From a virus (Duplodnaviria; Caudoviricetes), in the IMG/VR virus record IMGVR_UViG_3300033463_000008: a stretch of DNA of 64,000 nt. One strand, given 5' to 3'. Of the stretch, positions 14,741-51,053 are shown one piece after another. A program made the position numbers and the translations under genes. The notes under the pieces were generated by a model. It was not told where the DNA came from, ran no database searches, and saw nothing but the letters and a program-made list of their open reading frames with translations. Position 1 is the stretch's first letter. Each line of letters starts with the position of its first letter.

Positions 14741-14782
14741 AATAATCGTTGCAAATGCAACGATTATGTGCCAATAGATGGG

Positions 14783-14814
14783 ATAAGCGGTGTATTTGCA
14801 CCGCTTATTTTTTA
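14783..14814. terminator. bidirectional terminator between convergent genes
   Basis: ATAAGCGGTG-loop-CACCGCTTAT + T tract. Confidence 0.65.
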
Positions 14815-32860: not shown

Positions 32861-34351
32861 ATGCAGGTTATCCAGAACAAGTCCAATACACGTAAGTGGA
32901 AGGCCGTCCTTGAATCCAATCTCGGTCGCCCGCTCCGCAACCGTGGGGAAGCTTCTGCAATCGCAGTGCTTCTTGAAAACCAGAACTTGGTCAACCGTGG
33001 TGCCAAGTTCGAATCTGCCAACATCACCGCTGATGTGGCTCAGTACCAACAGTATGCCCTTCCGCTCATTCGCCGTCAGTTCCCTGAACTCTTGGCTATG
33101 AACACTGTGGCCGTCATCCCGACGACTACTCCACAGGGAATTTACTTCGCGTTGCGTTATCTGTACGATAACGAACCGCTCAAGACGACTGCCTTCCGTT
33201 ATGGCCAGAAGCAGGAAATCGGTTACGATTTGATCGCTGACCACACCGGTTTTGCAACGTCCTTCAACCCGTACAGCACGGGCGCTGGCGAAATGCTCTC
33301 CAACTACTCCGAAGGTACTCAGGAACGTACCGGCCTCGCTTATGGCGTGAAGAACCCTGGCGATCCGGGCTACCTCTACAACAACTTCGGTGGTCTCACC
33401 AACGATGGTGATGATGAACTCGGTCAGTACGCTTACAACATCAAGAAAGCATCCATCAAGGTGATTTCTGGTGCTATCCGCGTCGGTACTCGCGCCATCA
33501 AGAGCCATTACACGCTCGAACTCCAGCAGGACATGGCTGCAGCACACGGCCAGGACGTTGAAGCTCTCTTGCTCGAAGGCCTCCAGTTCGAAATCCAGCA
33601 GAACATCGACCGTGAAATCCTCATGGCCATGATCATGGTTGCTCAGAACGAACGCCTCGGTGGTGAAAAGGTCATCGTTGTTGACCTCAAGAACACTGAA
33701 ACGGGTCCGGCTAAGGGTCGTTGGGCTGCTGAATCCATCGCAGCTGGCATCGTGAACACCATCATCGCCGTGTCTCGTAAGATCGCTCTTACGACTCGTA
33801 TGGGTTCCGGTAACTTCGCCATCGTGTCCCCGGACATCGGCGCTGCTATCGCCACTTTGAACAACGGTATCTACATCCCGAACGGCTACCTCGGTACTGA
33901 TGCTACCATGCAGCCTGCTGGTGGTGTGGCTGACGCTGGTTCTCTCCTCAACGGTCAGATCAAGCTGTACCAGGACATCTACGCTAACGCCAGCTACGCT
34001 CTCGTTGGCTTCAAGGGTCCTCGTCAGGGTGAATCCGGCATCATCTTCATGCCGTACATCCCGTACATCTTCACGAAGACCGCTGGTCAGGAAGATGGTT
34101 CTCCGCGTCTCATCGTCAAGAGCCGTTACGCCATCGTGGCTAACCTCCTCGGCGCTGGCCAGTTCTATCGTATCATCCAGTTCAAGAACGTGAACAACGT
34201 GATTACTGGTATCGACTTGAACGAAGCTCCGTGGGAATCTAACGGTTCCTTCACGGGTGACAACCTCGAACCGGGTCTCTCCTACCACGATCAGTCCACC
34301 GAGCTCTACAACGCTGCTGGTGGCTTGACCTTCGAAGACAAGCACTGGTAA
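32861..34351 (+). CDS. major capsid protein (gp23-like)
   Basis: KWKAVLE, LLENQ, IFALRY-like IYFALRY, RAIKSHYTLELQQDMAAAHG, EIQQNIDREI, PYIP, SRYA; very biased codon usage. Confidence 0.95.
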   Translation: MQVIQNKSNTRKWKAVLESNLGRPLRNRGEASAIAVLLENQNLVNRGAKFESANITADVAQYQQYALPLIRRQFPELLAMNTVAVIPTTTPQGIYFALRYLYDNEPLKTTAFRYGQKQEIGYDLIADHTGFATSFNPYSTGAGEMLSNYSEGTQERTGLAYGVKNPGDPGYLYNNFGGLTNDGDDELGQYAYNIKKASIKVISGAIRVGTRAIKSHYTLELQQDMAAAHGQDVEALLLEGLQFEIQQNIDREILMAMIMVAQNERLGGEKVIVVDLKNTETGPAKGRWAAESIAAGIVNTIIAVSRKIALTTRMGSGNFAIVSPDIGAAIATLNNGIYIPNGYLGTDATMQPAGGVADAGSLLNGQIKLYQDIYANASYALVGFKGPRQGESGIIFMPYIPYIFTKTAGQEDGSPRLIVKSRYAIVANLLGAGQFYRIIQFKNVNNVITGIDLNEAPWESNGSFTGDNLEPGLSYHDQSTELYNAAGGLTFEDKHW

Positions 34352-34390
34352 TCTTTACCGGTCTTGCCCGAAAGGGGAAACGGAAATGAA

Positions 34391-34421
34391 TGGGAGTGGG
34401 TGAAAACCCGCTCCTATTTTT
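34391..34421 (+). terminator. intrinsic terminator after capsid gene
   Basis: GGAGTGGGT-GAAA-ACCCGCTCC + T tract. Confidence 0.75.
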
Positions 34422-34424
34422 GTT

Positions 34425-34620
34425 TGGCAATGATTTAAAAATTATGAACTACCCACCGGCTAAAGACCGGTGGGTTTCAGTAACCACCGGTGCAACCAGT
34501 TGAATTTCCCGCATCACAGCACCACTGCTTTTTAGGTCGTTAAGACGGTCATCCACAGTTGGGTTCTCCGCAAGGCATAGCGGTCGCAAGACCACGGCTT
34601 CCCCGGTTCGCGGGGTACCT
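34425..34620 (-). ncRNA. predicted TnpB omegaRNA/reRNA (overlaps tnpB 3' end; guide from flank)
   Basis: Established TnpB architecture; RE hairpin ending GGGTAGTTCAT; boundaries approximate. Confidence 0.55.
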
Positions 34621-35720
34621 TCATTATCTAGTATTCTAAGACCTTCATCAAGTATGTTCTTGGCGGCATTCCAGTCCCTATCTATTACGCTACCACATTC
34701 TAGACATATCCACTCGCGTTCGCTAAGTTTCAATGTATGGTATCTATGCCCACAGTTGTTGCATAGTTGCGAACTGGGGAAGAACCGTCCTACCTTAACG
34801 ACAGTACGGTTATGCCATTGAGCCTTGTACTCTATCATCTTAGTTAGTGTACCGAGTGCCTGATTGGCCAACGCACCAGCAAGACAGCGGTTCTTCAGCA
34901 TTCCCTTTATGTTAAGGTTCTCCATGCAGATTATGTCATAATCTCGGACTAACCTGTGTGATACTTGATGAAGGAAGTTATTCCTTCTGTTACCCAGTTT
35001 TTCATGGGCTGCAGCAAGTTGAATACGGACTTTCTCGTATCGACTGCCGCCTTTCTTCGCCTTTGCGAGTTTCCTCTGCAAATGCCTAATCTTTCGTTCC
35101 GACTTCTTATCGAAATGTGGATTCTTAATCACTTCTCCGTTGGACATCACGATGGACGACTTGATACCGAGGTCGATACCCACACATTCGCCAGTATGTT
35201 CCATTTCCGGCACATCAACATCACAACAAATAGAACAATAATAGTCGCCCTTTCTGCTCTTCTTTACGGTGACATGATAGATTTTAACAATATTTTCGTG
35301 TTCAAATGTCTTGCCGAAACGGCACTTAATTGCACCAACTTTCGGCAGTACAATGGAATTGCCGACTATTAGTTTCTTAATATCCTTGTGACACATAGCA
35401 TTCCGGTAACTCTGTTTGTCCTTCTTGGACTTGTATCTTGGATACTTGGATTTGCCTGCAAAGAAGTTCTGATAGGCTTGGTTCATATCCATATAGGCAT
35501 TAGCCAGTCCTTGCGAGTCGGCTTCTTTCAACCATTCCCATTCTTCCTTAAAAGACTTCAATTTCGGCTGAAAGGACATCTTGGTCTCTTCGTAGATATA
35601 TGACTTAATTCTAAGGCACTGGTTATACACGAAACGACAGCAACCGAAGGTCTTCGCGAAAAATACCTTCTGCGCTTTGTTCGGATATAGCTTGATTTCG
35701 ATGCCTTTCTTAACTATCAT
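34449..35720 (-). CDS. tnpB: TnpB RNA-guided endonuclease
   Basis: KLYPNKAQ..FGCCRFVYN HTH, RuvC GIDLG / MENL / DRDWNAAKNI, CNNC..CLEC Zn finger. Confidence 0.95.
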   Translation of the reverse strand: MIVKKGIEIKLYPNKAQKVFFAKTFGCCRFVYNQCLRIKSYIYEETKMSFQPKLKSFKEEWEWLKEADSQGLANAYMDMNQAYQNFFAGKSKYPRYKSKKDKQSYRNAMCHKDIKKLIVGNSIVLPKVGAIKCRFGKTFEHENIVKIYHVTVKKSRKGDYYCSICCDVDVPEMEHTGECVGIDLGIKSSIVMSNGEVIKNPHFDKKSERKIRHLQRKLAKAKKGGSRYEKVRIQLAAAHEKLGNRRNNFLHQVSHRLVRDYDIICMENLNIKGMLKNRCLAGALANQALGTLTKMIEYKAQWHNRTVVKVGRFFPSSQLCNNCGHRYHTLKLSEREWICLECGSVIDRDWNAAKNILDEGLRILDNEGTPRTGEAVVLRPLCLAENPTVDDRLNDLKSSGAVMREIQLVAPVVTETHRSLAGG

Positions 35721-35729
35721 ACGAAAAAA

Positions 35730-35830
35730 CCTACCGGAACTGGTCCTTCCGGTAGGATACAATGTACCTAAGTACATTTTAAACTCTTCTGCGATGGCAA
35801 GGACCAGTTGCCTTCGTATATCAGTTTATA
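35730..35830 (-). promoter_or_regulatory. late promoter + kissing-hairpin leader of tnpB
   Basis: TATAAACT (35830-35823), hairpin loops CUGGUCC and GGACCAG complementary. Confidence 0.65.
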
Positions 35831-35955
35831 TATGTAGCAAAAATTCCGAAAATAGTCAAGCGGCTTTCATCTCACCCACTAAAGATGGGTGAGTTTTCTC
35901 GCCGCTACATTATAAACTGTACCATGAAAGATTTTTACCGACTGGTGTGTTTATT

Positions 35956-36615
35956 ATGATGGATATGTTTGAATCGCTTGAAAGTATGCTTCCGCTGTGC
36001 GAAATGGCGTCAGTGGACATGACAGGCAATGCTGGGACATTGGATGCATCTCACTACAAGGCATATGCCAAGAATCCAAGTGAACTCGACCAGAATACGC
36101 TGGCTGAACTTGCTGACATGGTTGACCGCGCCCATGATGCAAAGAACGTGATTGCTGCGCAACAGGCATCCGGGCGTGAACCGATGGCGACACCAAGGAC
36201 GATTGACCAGTTGATGAATAGCATACTTGTCCTCTACATCACATGTGACGATGCGCCCGTGGCTGTTACGAATGTAGTGGACCCGTCAATGGAAGACTAT
36301 CATGGATATGTGCCCATCAGGTTCTATTCATTGAAAACCGGGTATAACCTGGATGGCCGTCTGCAACAGTCTTTCTTCTCCATTGAGGAAGATTTTCGCT
36401 CATCCGGCGTAGCAAAGGAATTGTTCCTGCAACTGAATGTCAACGGTTCGCCGTGCTTCATCGTGGTTGACCCGATGGATGCACCGACAGTGAAGAATGT
36501 GCAGGAAAGCGGATACAAGAAAGTGGGCCACATGAAAATAGATGGCTCGGGTAACGAAATGGAGCTGTGGGTATCCCCAGCAAAGGAAAAGGTAGCTTCT
36601 GATGAGCAAGATTAA
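35956..36615 (+). CDS. GNAT-like acetyltransferase with putative cleavable N-terminus
   Basis: FSIEEDFRSSGVAKELF (AcCoA motif A-like), SGYK; late promoter 35911; N-terminal FESLES. Confidence 0.5.
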   Translation: MMDMFESLESMLPLCEMASVDMTGNAGTLDASHYKAYAKNPSELDQNTLAELADMVDRAHDAKNVIAAQQASGREPMATPRTIDQLMNSILVLYITCDDAPVAVTNVVDPSMEDYHGYVPIRFYSLKTGYNLDGRLQQSFFSIEEDFRSSGVAKELFLQLNVNGSPCFIVVDPMDAPTVKNVQESGYKKVGHMKIDGSGNEMELWVSPAKEKVASDEQD

Positions 36616-43115: not shown

Positions 43116-45032
43116 TTATACTCTCGAAGCTACTGGTATACCCGGTACGGGCGGCTGTGGATAGGCGTAGTTCTGTGGCTGCTGTGGATAGTAACCTGGG
43201 TATTGATAGTTATAGTGTTGCTGATATGCCGGATGTTGCTGCATGTGATTATAACCGGGCGGATATGCCTGATATTGATGCTGCATATCCTGTCGGTAGC
43301 CTTGCGGCGGGCCATACTGGTATTGCTGTGGAACGCCTGAATAGACAGTGGCCTGAACCGGCTGTTGTTGCTGCTGCGACGGGCGCTGTACAGGCGGCAA
43401 CATGCGCTGGTTGCCGGCAAGTTCCATCATGCCGCGCTGTTCCTGCGAAATTTGCGGGTTGTGGATTTGCTCTGCCGCGTTGCGCATGTCGGCAATCTGA
43501 GCAGCCGGTGCGAACACCGCCCTGATTACGTCGTCCCAAGAGATTTCTTCCATTTCACCCTGGAAGTACGGCGAGTAGGCGTGGTAGACGGCCCAGTACA
43601 AGCTCGTAACGTGGTCGTCATGGTTACCGCCGGAAGCACCCCAGGTGCTCTTGGTGGGTCGAGTGAACGACATGAGCTCGTTGATTGTCTTCTCGTCATG
43701 GAGAATGAGGTAGTTCTTCTGGATGTAAGTCTTCAGCAGCATGACGGCCTGGTTCTTGGTAGTTCCAGTGGAGTACATGCCACGGAAGTAGCTATCGTAG
43801 TCAACGATATTCGGGTACTGCATTGCGGCAGTCATCGTCTGGTAGGCAAGCGAGCCGGATCCGCCATTATATTCGATTGTAAGTGCGGGGAAATTGTATT
43901 TCCGGAGTAGGGCAAATGACACTGCACAGAAGTCTTCTACGGTCACGCTGTTCGAGGACAGTGTGAGCACCTGTTCCAGCTTGGTACTGGTCTTTGCATA
44001 GAGGATTTGGAGGACGTGGTAGTCCTGACGCATACCGTAGCCGGTATCCAGTGCGGCAATGTAGACTGACTTGTCGAATTCCATCTGTTGCGGATTGAGC
44101 GGTCGCCGATAAACGCGGAGCTGGTATTCGTCCGGGATTCTCGGATGGGCCATCGGTTTGTCCGGATGCAGATGCTGCAAGGTGTGGTAGTCGATAAGGG
44201 TGACTGCGGAACCGATGAATTCGCATTCGTATTCCTGGCGGAATCTTTCTTCGCCACAGCGGAGTTTTTCGTCAATGCCCCACTGTTCGTCACGACCGGG
44301 CACTTCATTCCAGAGCACCGTGGACCTGACGTACTTCGCCTGCAATTCGTGTGCGGTTGCCGTAGATTCATCGACCGCATCTTCCCACATTCGATAGAAG
44401 TGGTTCATGCCCGCCGGCGTTGACGTAATGATGACTCGCGTCTTCTTACCTGACGAGATAGTCGGGAACACGGAAGCCATGAATTCATCGGCCATGCCCG
44501 GACGCAAGAACGCAAATTCGTCAAGGTACAGTAGATTCGGGGAGAAACCACGAATACCGTCCGATGATGAAGCCGCGATGATGATACGGCAGCCGTTGGC
44601 GAACTGGATGGACATCTTGTTCCACAGTTTTACGCCGGGCTGTAGCCAGTAGGGGAGGTTCAGGTAGGATTCTCGCAGGAGCTGCAACTGTTCCTTAGCA
44701 AGCATGAGCTTGTTTGCCAGCATTGCGATGAGCTGGTCTTCGTGGAACATTGCGTACCAAAGGATAAATGCGCGGACAATGGTGGATTTACCCACCTGCC
44801 GGGACCATCGGTTGATGTTGAACCTGTATTTGAGGAAACGCCGAATTGCCTCGTCCTGGAACGGGTACGTCTTCATCAGCTGGGTGCCCTCGTCCTTTGT
44901 GTTGATGTAGACGTAGTGGCGGATGAAGTAAATAGGGTCCTTGGTGCAGCGCTCGATTTCTTGCAGCTGCCACATTTCGAGCTTCACAGACTCGCTTGCA
45001 GACCTTAGATTATGTATCCCGTTGAATGGCAT
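43116..45032 (-). CDS. large terminase (gp17-like) with Q/Y/P-rich C-terminal tail
   Basis: DPIYFI, SRQVGKST, LYLDEFAF, ITSTP.G, FRQEYECEF, HDDHV; late promoter at 45050-45043. Confidence 0.95.
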   Translation of the reverse strand: MPFNGIHNLRSASESVKLEMWQLQEIERCTKDPIYFIRHYVYINTKDEGTQLMKTYPFQDEAIRRFLKYRFNINRWSRQVGKSTIVRAFILWYAMFHEDQLIAMLANKLMLAKEQLQLLRESYLNLPYWLQPGVKLWNKMSIQFANGCRIIIAASSSDGIRGFSPNLLYLDEFAFLRPGMADEFMASVFPTISSGKKTRVIITSTPAGMNHFYRMWEDAVDESTATAHELQAKYVRSTVLWNEVPGRDEQWGIDEKLRCGEERFRQEYECEFIGSAVTLIDYHTLQHLHPDKPMAHPRIPDEYQLRVYRRPLNPQQMEFDKSVYIAALDTGYGMRQDYHVLQILYAKTSTKLEQVLTLSSNSVTVEDFCAVSFALLRKYNFPALTIEYNGGSGSLAYQTMTAAMQYPNIVDYDSYFRGMYSTGTTKNQAVMLLKTYIQKNYLILHDEKTINELMSFTRPTKSTWGASGGNHDDHVTSLYWAVYHAYSPYFQGEMEEISWDDVIRAVFAPAAQIADMRNAAEQIHNPQISQEQRGMMELAGNQRMLPPVQRPSQQQQQPVQATVYSGVPQQYQYGPPQGYRQDMQHQYQAYPPGYNHMQQHPAYQQHYNYQYPGYYPQQPQNYAYPQPPVPGIPVASRV

Positions 45033-49829: not shown

Positions 49830-49937
49830 TATAAACTCATTGCCGGCACATCGGATAATTGGCGTTCTTCGATGTGAGATGGGTTTTATAGGTGACCCGT
49901 GGTTGGATGAACGCCAATTTAGCCGACTGCGGGTCAC
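49830..49937 (+). promoter_or_regulatory. late promoter + kissing-hairpin leader of endonuclease gene
   Basis: TATAAACT, two stem-loops with 11-nt complementary loops. Confidence 0.7.
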
Positions 49938-49940
49938 TTT

Positions 49941-51053
49941 ATGCTTAATAAGAAATCAATTTATGGTCATCTGTCTAATGAAGCTGACTTAGTGCAGATG
50001 AAATCTTTAAAACCGGTAAATAAATATAATCGGTTAAATTTTAGTTTTAAGTGTTCAGAATGTGGAGAGATTTCATCACGAAACTTACGGACGATAGTAT
50101 TTCCATTTAGATGTCGTAATTGCGTATCTAAACAAACACATACCACGGACGAATACTATGCAAACTATAATAAGAGTATGGTTGAAAAGTATGGCGAAAA
50201 TTACCGTGAGATATTAGATGAGCATCGGAATCAAGTTGTGAAGGAGCGTTATGGTAGTTATTCTGGCATGTTTATCGCAACAAGTGATAAACGAAATGCT
50301 ACCATGAAAGCTAGATATGGGGTTACTCATCCGGCAAAAATTGATGGATATGGTAGAAAATGCGCTGAAACTAAGTTGCAACGGTATGGTGACCCGACAT
50401 ATAACAATCGTACCAAAGCGAAGGAGAGTATTGTTGCCGAATTCGGATCAACTGATGTGTGGTATCAACAAAATGTAATTAAGAGTACGCGCACGAAATT
50501 GATACGATATGGTGATAAGACATATAATAATAGGGAGAAGGCTGCGAAAACATCTCTTAAACGATACGGAGTCCGCGTTCCATCACAGAGTAAGAAGATT
50601 CATGAACGAATGCATTTTAAGTACATTTATAATGATATAATCTTTGATAGTTCGTATGATTTATCATATTATATATGGCTATCTGATAATAACATTGATT
50701 TTGAGTATAGACCGGATGTGCAATTTTCTTATACATATAATGGAAGGACTCATGTTTATAACCCGGATTTTAGAGTTGAAACGAGATTAGTTGAATTGAA
50801 GGGCCGGCAATTCTTCAAGGATAAAAATCCGGATAATGTAATGGTGAACCCATATAATCATGATGAGGATGGATTATATGAAGCAAAACATCAGTGTATG
50901 CTGGCTCACGATGTTGACATTATAGTAGATTGTTCGGAATACGAGAAATATGTTGCCAAACATTATGGAAAGGATTATATTTCTACTTTTAGGAATAAAA
51001 CAATTAAACATAAAAAGCGTAATAAGGTTTGTAATGAATTACAGCAAGATTGA
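49941..51053 (+). CDS. free-standing homing-type endonuclease (Zn finger, K/RYG repeats, PD-(D/E)XK domain)
   Basis: CSEC..CRNC, repeated RYG/KYG units, FDSSYD..YNPDF..VELKG; AT-rich insertion between nrdD and nrdG. Confidence 0.7.
   Translation: MLNKKSIYGHLSNEADLVQMKSLKPVNKYNRLNFSFKCSECGEISSRNLRTIVFPFRCRNCVSKQTHTTDEYYANYNKSMVEKYGENYREILDEHRNQVVKERYGSYSGMFIATSDKRNATMKARYGVTHPAKIDGYGRKCAETKLQRYGDPTYNNRTKAKESIVAEFGSTDVWYQQNVIKSTRTKLIRYGDKTYNNREKAAKTSLKRYGVRVPSQSKKIHERMHFKYIYNDIIFDSSYDLSYYIWLSDNNIDFEYRPDVQFSYTYNGRTHVYNPDFRVETRLVELKGRQFFKDKNPDNVMVNPYNHDEDGLYEAKHQCMLAHDVDIIVDCSEYEKYVAKHYGKDYISTFRNKTIKHKKRNKVCNELQQD

Follow-up and report, generated by a model that had tools for sequence, protein, structure and literature searches.

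The DNA analysed, here called the window, is a stretch of 64,000 nucleotides that is part of a large T4-like phage, and similar DNA is present in bovine and goat gut metagenomes. In antisense orientation, an insertion sequence (IS) element separates a Gp23-type major capsid gene (32861-34351) from the plus-strand gene that follows. It carries tnpB but no tnpA, and the RuvC-type residues D183, E267 and D349 of its TnpB protein are invariant in relatives. Conservation among related loci starts at TTTAT(AA), just before the left-end hairpin, and ends after 34444, five bases beyond the tnpB stop codon; the hairpin of the left end is repeated at the right end. Between the left end and tnpB is a leader containing a promoter-like box, a hairpin H1, a spacer hairpin Hs and a hairpin H2 followed by a T tract (Table 1).

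Table 1. Features of the tnpB element and its leader, and sites of two over-represented motifs in the window
Feature	Coordinates	Strand	Remarks
IS right end / 3′ part of omegaRNA scaffold	34444..34520	-	context
tnpB, 423 aa	34449..35720	-	HTH_OrfB_IS605, OrfB_IS605 and Cas12f-like TNB domains
T6 (U6) tract	35724..35729	-	directly 3′ of H2
Hairpin H2	35730..35756	-	10 perfect pairs, 6 of them G-C; 7-nt loop 35740-35746
Kissing (loop-loop) helix	35740..35807	-	35801-35807 with 35740-35746, 7 Watson-Crick pairs
Spacer hairpin Hs, 7 bp	35761..35778	-	arms 35778-35772 and 35767-35761
Hairpin H1	35792..35816	-	8/9 pairs, one A.A mismatch; 7-nt loop 35801-35807
TATAAACT box	35823..35830	-	promoter-like; ~6 nt 5′ of H1
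IS left end	35866..35916	-	context; TTTAT(AA) target motif 35910-35916, hairpin 35873-35896
TATAAACT sites, examples	5832, 11978, 15503, 19673, 25952, 39513, 49830	+	
TATAAACT sites, examples	43120, 45050, 53413	-	
TTTGCTATATT sites	2074, 2085, 16714, 45112, 53438, 60860	+	

The insertion site coincides precisely with a TATAAACT box in reverse complement, as the left flank of the element reads (35910-35918 on the plus strand; the other boundary is 34444). The box at this flank is intact, 38 nt before a plus-strand orf that starts at 35956, and the same flank is found at five of eight related insertions; the element therefore seems to target TTTAT inside late-type promoters of the phage and to leave the promoters intact. 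The 3′ end of the tnpB/omegaRNA region (34503-34574, 72 nt) is 81% identical to Prevotella phage Lak-C1, the only hit of the element in the GenBank phage set. One RNA-library contig (run X17) fuses the right-end hairpin to the left end, with position 34478 joined to 35866 and 1387 nt skipped, including tnpB and the leader; many more contigs of this run match the left end only, at high depth. The join suggests miniature (PATE/MITE-like) derivatives of the element or excised junctions. The plus strand, which is antisense to tnpB, has a promoter-like site over the tnpB start codon (35692-35720; its score is within chance expectation), and on the same strand the left-end hairpin with a T-rich stretch (35871-35893) scores as a terminator; a putative antisense RNA of ~165 nt, resembling art200 of IS200, could extend across the whole leader.

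All letters and coordinates given for the hairpins, the box, the loops and the ATG in the original prediction, which was made from the sequence of the window, match those found here, and its two 7-nt loops are indeed exact complements in the window copy. The leader is also, as had been proposed, separate from the two other structured parts of the element: the left-end hairpin is upstream of it (35896-35873), and the right end and omegaRNA region (34520-34444) does not covary with the loops. A stretch of the right end resembles the H1 loop but stays unchanged when the leader loops change, and a link to the omegaRNA on this basis was rejected. The ATG of tnpB (35720) is 9 nt past the end of H2, and the T6 tract in between could be a terminator tail, a spacer between the Shine-Dalgarno (SD) sequence and the AUG, or both. 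The three hairpins constitute both the minimum free energy structure and the centroid computed by RNAfold (-38.3 kcal/mol, z = -4.58), and none of 200 shuffled sequences folds equally well; the computed energies of the free loop duplexes are about -7 to -11 kcal/mol. The two loop regions of the window copy are joined by an 11-nt perfect inverted repeat. The 11-bp extension of the kissing helix that had been described thus exists in this copy but is absent from most distant members of the family, and it is seen because the closing A-U pairs are invariant in the subfamily of the window. An outer helix around H1 (35820-35825 with 35779-35787) was considered and rejected; part of it falls within the promoter-like box, and the distant subfamily lacks a counterpart.

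Related loci were collected by protein-guided scans, which yielded 11 viral loci, 50 metagenomic loci and two in a metagenome-assembled genome (MAG) of Paludibacteraceae. In every one of the 43 distinct leaders a sequence exactly complementary to its H2 loop is located 58-68 nt upstream of that loop, and the 20 different loop pairs so formed are perfect over seven of seven Watson-Crick positions, with no wobble or mismatch in the kissing helix of any of the 43; with further viral copies the number of loop-pair types rises to about 26. Loop covariation among related leaders had been put forward as a check on the original prediction, and this is its outcome. In a cross control with the loops of other leaders, a complement was present in just 7 of 1698 comparisons. 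The kissing helix is 100% paired in an alignment of the near family (19 sequences), where three of its seven pairs have changed on both sides and none on one side only, its observed covariation score is unreached by any shuffle, and pairing falls to 25-39% when the partner is shifted by one to three columns. Close relatives (TnpB 86-95% identical) have leaders that are nearly invariant outside the loops while both loops switch together, for example among the pairs CTGGTCC/GGACCAG, CTCGCAC/GTGCGAG and CTGGTAC/GTACCAG. A blind hairpin caller, to which the H2 loop was unknown, recovered all 7/7 Watson-Crick pairs for 31 of 37 leaders and chose a wrong hairpin in the remaining six, most of which were separately shown to hold the exact complement. 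A cross-subfamily CM alignment was left out of these counts, as the distant H1 loops were out of register in it and antisense hits were mixed in. The loop-loop covariation is very strong, and the kissing-loop RNA is real and conserved.

The same architecture recurs with unrelated stems and loops in an AT-rich TnpB subfamily (~42% identical) and in the MAG copies (48%), and in these distant subfamilies the loops are again exactly complementary. The three hairpins are conserved in different ways. The H1 stem of relatives tolerates G.U pairs and has one compensatory pair in the near family, and a purine-purine mismatch in its lower part is conserved. Hs, of which three of seven pairs have changed on both sides in the near family, is present in the distant subfamilies with unrelated sequence and without any conserved sequence. 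The H2 stem is invariant in the 19 near-family leaders and is 12 bp long in most relatives; its base and the T run are kept in all subfamilies, the run being at least 4-5 nt in 43 of 43 leaders. Since the G.U pairs of the ordinary stems would be C.A on the other strand, the structure is assigned to the sense strand, and the loop-to-loop distance of 58-68 nt, which holds in all subfamilies, fits an intramolecular contact.

Selection on the leader was gauged against tnpB itself. Between pairs of loci with tnpB dS values of 0.3-2.5, the non-loop part of the leader diverges by 0.04-0.23 and is therefore more constrained than silent sites; the H2 stem is invariant even at dS > 1.5. Divergence of the loops in such pairs is 0-0.43, and in the win-L001 pair the loops differ by 0.43 compared to 0.10 for the remaining leader. 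Diversifying selection on the loops is not supported, as their divergence is not above dS.

The TATAAACT box upstream of H1 has 12 exact copies in the window, at least nine of them in sense orientation at distances of 25-110 nt before an orf start; for the related pattern TATAAAYW the count in the window is 16, versus six expected. Every leader subfamily has a TATAAA(C/T) box 6-9 nt before H1. The box resembles the T4 late promoter, TATAAATA, and is probably the late-type promoter element of the phage; transcription of the leader probably starts from it. If the box is a -10-type element, H1 would be located at the very 5′ end of the RNA, and H1 is probably the 5′-terminal hairpin of the transcript. 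Other genes behind TATAAACT boxes have short, unstructured leaders. A second over-represented motif in the window, TTTGCTATATT, has six exact copies, and nine copies with one mismatch versus about one expected. At three of its sites (16714, 45112 and 53438) it ends just ~10 nt before an ATG, and it may be an extended -10 promoter that gives rise to nearly leaderless mRNAs; two leader copies of a related phage sit behind a motif similar to TTTGCTATATT.

H2 and its T run look like an intrinsic (Rho-independent) terminator by their sequence. Stem and loop are within the limits for such terminators (a G+C-rich stem of 5-14 bp and a loop of 3-8 nt), the U tract is supplied by the six T residues directly after the stem, and the energy of H2 is -17 kcal/mol in the window and about -12 to -13 kcal/mol in AT-rich members. 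H2 also has the form of a hairpin that sequesters a ribosome-binding site, with an SD sequence ~8 nt before the AUG paired in a stable stem. The leader had been predicted to occupy the place of a ribosome-binding site, and this holds with a refinement: an SD-like AGG(T) (35732-35729), at 8 nt from the ATG, forms part of the 3′ arm of H2. Across leaders, AGG(A/T) recurs in this arm at a distance of ~6-14 nt from the ATG, and other genes of the phage have AAGGA or AAGGT 6-11 nt before the ATG. The leader copy L212 has a separate good SD sequence ~20 nt after H2, and so occlusion is not the whole story. One RNA contig of a relative runs from tnpB through H2 to 35789, which hints at read-through; the RNA evidence consists of assembled contigs of ~90%-identical relatives, which do not resolve starts, ends or strand.

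The leader had been described as belonging to tnpB. Its existence is well supported, but it is not specific to tnpB, for it also precedes other mobile nuclease genes. These leaders were found by scanning viral contigs for the conserved base of H2 and the T run, and R1, a covariance model of the near family, matches most of them on the sense strand, at best with 93 bits and at worst weakly. The 93-bit match (L164) precedes an I-TevI-like protein with a zinc finger, a NUMOD3 motif and a Vsr-like nuclease domain. A leader without an R1 match on the sense strand (L151) precedes a DUF7487 protein, three leaders (L202, L140 and L213) precede 431-aa SSO2105_N-like cluster proteins with a weak 'transposase' PHROG hit, and L212 precedes a 160-aa protein of unknown family, the one exception to the link with mobile nucleases. 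Comparison by hhalign detected no relationship of the 431-aa protein to TnpB, and no similarity to the left or right end of the IS was found near the non-TnpB leader loci. The presence of the leader before non-TnpB genes without IS ends argues that it is an RNA expression module and not a transposition structure. There are also distant TnpB loci without the leader (L009-L011, L088 and L089). Single phage genomes contain two or three leaders with different loops, while the Paludibacteraceae MAG contains at least three IS copies, two of which have one loop pair in common. The loops were considered as operators or targets of the encoded protein, and this was rejected: one loop pair serves both TnpB (L058/L066) and the I-TevI-like endonuclease (L164), and TnpB proteins that are 95% identical have different loops.

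Within the window, the tnpB copy is the only sense-strand match of R1 (143 bits). In a second leader of the same design (49830-49943, plus strand), a TATAAACT box is present and an 11-nt complement connects two hairpins; 3 nt separate the end of the second hairpin from the ATG of a DUF7487 / homing-endonuclease-like gene (49941-51053, plus strand); no homology of this leader to that of tnpB is detectable by R1. A scan of the window for paired hairpins with complementary loops also returned adjacent hairpins at 14742-14811, symmetric on both strands, which may be a bidirectional terminator, and a pair with a 7-nt loop complement at 44141-44225.

The best reading of these features, considered moderately probable as a whole, is that the tnpB leader is a cis-acting structured 5′ RNA of ~105 nt that throttles synthesis of the nuclease. 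This RNA, probably transcribed from the TATAAACT box, has H1, the spacer hairpin and H2 as its fold, with a 7-bp kissing helix between the apical 7-nt loops of H1 and H2. H2 would terminate part of the transcripts, so that few pass, and in those that pass it would hide the ribosome-binding site, resulting in poor translation. Through the kissing helix, the 5′ hairpin would hold H2 locked or pre-organised and would create a compact, probably nuclease-resistant 5′ end. The leader thus probably keeps the expression of selfish nuclease genes low, a direction of regulation that is predicted from the form of H2. The predicted weight of termination relative to translational occlusion has indications on both sides: the free SD sequence after H2 in L212 and the invariance of the T run speak against pure occlusion, while the conserved AGG at SD distance and, as weak evidence, the RNA contig of a relative that passes through H2 speak against a pure terminator. 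Further points count against throttling. Simple occlusion leaves the need for a kissing partner unexplained, and plain structural covariation would normally leave some G.U pairs in the kissing helix, which has none at all. Copies also occur in the Paludibacteraceae MAG: a phage-type late promoter may not work there, and SD sequences are generally little used in this kind of host.

The same fold might be a conditional gate, a switch of transcription or translation that is off by default and is opened at the right time of infection by a factor acting in trans, either a protein of phage or host origin recognising the shape of the kissing complex or an antiterminator, so that expression would be timed and not merely damped. 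A shape-reading protein would allow strict 7-nt Watson-Crick loop pairs of free sequence, and Rom is a protein that recognises the loop pairs of ColE1 RNA I and RNA II. Conservation beyond the needs of pairing (the H2 stem at dS > 1.5, the base of H2 and the purine-purine mismatch of H1) and the position of a terminator-like H2 right after a promoter-like box agree with such a gate. It is nevertheless rather unlikely, because the leader is also found in a bacterial MAG and in at least two promoter-like contexts, for which a single phage-specific factor is not obvious, no candidate factor was found, and no alternative (antiterminator) pairing is kept across subfamilies. Anti-sequestor pairings of the 5′ arm of H2 with the foot of H1 or the spacer loop, judged by eye and unscored, amount to 7-8 nt in the AT-rich subfamily and ~4 nt in the near family, and were rejected. 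A riboswitch was rejected as well, given that the loops are the most variable part of the leader, with no invariant pocket, and that no aptamer family was matched. An improbable reading has the leader acting in trans as an 'address' RNA of ~100 nt that ends at H2, the usual form of a small-RNA 3′ end being a hairpin with a U run, and pairs with the nascent leaders of sister copies; dimers held by two reciprocal kisses would serve copy-number sensing or multicopy inhibition, with the variety of loops preventing cross-talk. Many loop addresses do occur on near-identical leaders, as in the win-L001 pair, and leaders of one phage genome differ in their loops whereas two of three copies of one MAG IS share theirs; processing of the IS200 tnpA 5′UTR into a regulatory RNA is a precedent (PMC5435999). 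Overall, however, the loops evolve no faster than synonymous sites, and both the constant spacing and the conserved spacer hairpin point to a fold in cis. It is quite improbable, too, that address loops let each selfish nuclease element, whether a TnpB IS or a homing endonuclease, sense and restrict its own copy number or expression in the phage without cross-talk; if true, this would be an RNA-coded immunity or multicopy-inhibition system common to unrelated mobile nucleases.

Two further explanations would do without an RNA function. The leader is inside the IS and adjoins the left-end hairpin, and it might be a single-stranded DNA structure of the IS200/IS605 left end for peel-and-paste transposition; the transposed top strand carries the RNA-sense sequence, so the G.T pairs do not discriminate between DNA and RNA. 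A transposon end would be expected only together with left and right ends and to be needed for mobility, whereas the same leader precedes endonuclease, DUF7487, 431-aa and 160-aa genes without IS ends nearby, and the RNA-library contig that joins 34478 to 35866 lacks the leader, which is what a mini-element would look like. The leader's location, with a promoter-like box on one side and an ATG on the other, and its U run fit a role as RNA, and a DNA structure is very improbable. It is just as remote that there is no function at all and that the loops match by chance, or as an inverted repeat homogenised through DNA-level template switching or gene conversion. Copying could produce perfect complementarity without G.U intermediates, and on our own reading H1 and H2 of the AT-rich subfamily look like distant inverted paralogues; but identity is limited to exactly the seven loop bases, outside which the stems of H1 and H2 are unlike each other, purifying selection on the whole leader is strong, and the design persists across TnpB families that are only ~42% identical.

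TnpB is the ancestor of Cas12 and a compact genome editor, and control of its synthesis at the 5′ end is almost undescribed. The leader accompanies several TnpB subfamilies as well as homing-type nucleases unrelated to them, its sources being giant rumen phages and a Bacteroidota genome. Such a spread suggests a portable cassette by which selfish nucleases are controlled. With many orthogonal loop pairs to choose from, the leader could be used as a small, tunable lock on expression; the kissing lock predicts that single-loop mutants will differ from compensatory double mutants.

No relevant match to Rfam 15 was found in the window from 33800 to 36400 at E <= 5 (including IS605-orfB-I/II, HEARO and cow-rumen motifs), and none at E <= 1 in seven loci from all subfamilies; the Infernal/Rfam search suggested along with the original prediction thus identified no known family. 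In the literature, no described tnpB 5′ leader or kissing-loop terminator leader was found. The Rfam families IS605-orfB-I/II and HEARO/omegaRNA are likewise structured RNAs associated with orfB/tnpB of the IS605 family, but they are 3′ guide-RNA scaffolds whereas the tnpB leader is located at the 5′ end. Fully complementary 7-nt kissing loops are known from RNA I and RNA II of ColE1, and specificity loops that covary are known from the plasmid and phage antisense systems c4 of P1/P7 and CI of P4. The tnpB leader is like these systems in that its 7-nt loops are fully paired, free in sequence and present as specificity-type variants, but they involve two RNAs, an antisense or processed RNA and the target it pairs with, whereas both of its loops are contained in one leader, ~60 nt apart, with a spacer hairpin.

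The tnpA leader of IS200 comprises a left-end terminator, an SD-sequestering stem-loop, the antisense RNA art200 and a processed 5′UTR RNA (PMC4513863, PMC5435999). It belongs to the same IS superfamily, and in both cases a structured 5′UTR holds down the element's own protein; it is also a precedent for a leader as an RNA product. In contrast to the leader described here, it regulates tnpA and not tnpB, descriptions of it include no loop-loop tertiary pairing, and its antisense RNA comes from a transcript of its own, whereas the partner loop of the tnpB leader is on the same strand of the same leader. The tnpB leader is moreover a module in common with genes that do not belong to an IS.

The closest functional analogue is found in the homing endonuclease genes of T-even phages (I-TevI, I-TevII, I-TevIII, segB and Aeh1 mobE), which have hairpins that sequester the ribosome-binding site and keep nuclease synthesis low or late; a late promoter is located inside the hairpin in T4, so that late transcripts lack the inhibitory arm and escape repression (PMC2988022). 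In both cases a selfish nuclease gene has an SD sequence ~8 nt before the AUG buried in a hairpin with a late-type promoter nearby, and the placement of tnpB antisense by a Gp23-type gene is like that of T4 segD, which is antisense beside gene 23. The promoter-like box of the tnpB leader, however, is upstream of both hairpins and not embedded in one, and the T4 hairpins have no partner hairpin, whereas the leader has a constant 7-bp loop helix that covaries and a U run; the two have no sequence or Rfam relationship. The leader is, with strong support, an uncatalogued structured RNA in which what is probably a known kind of control by leader hairpins is combined with a covarying kissing lock in a portable module.
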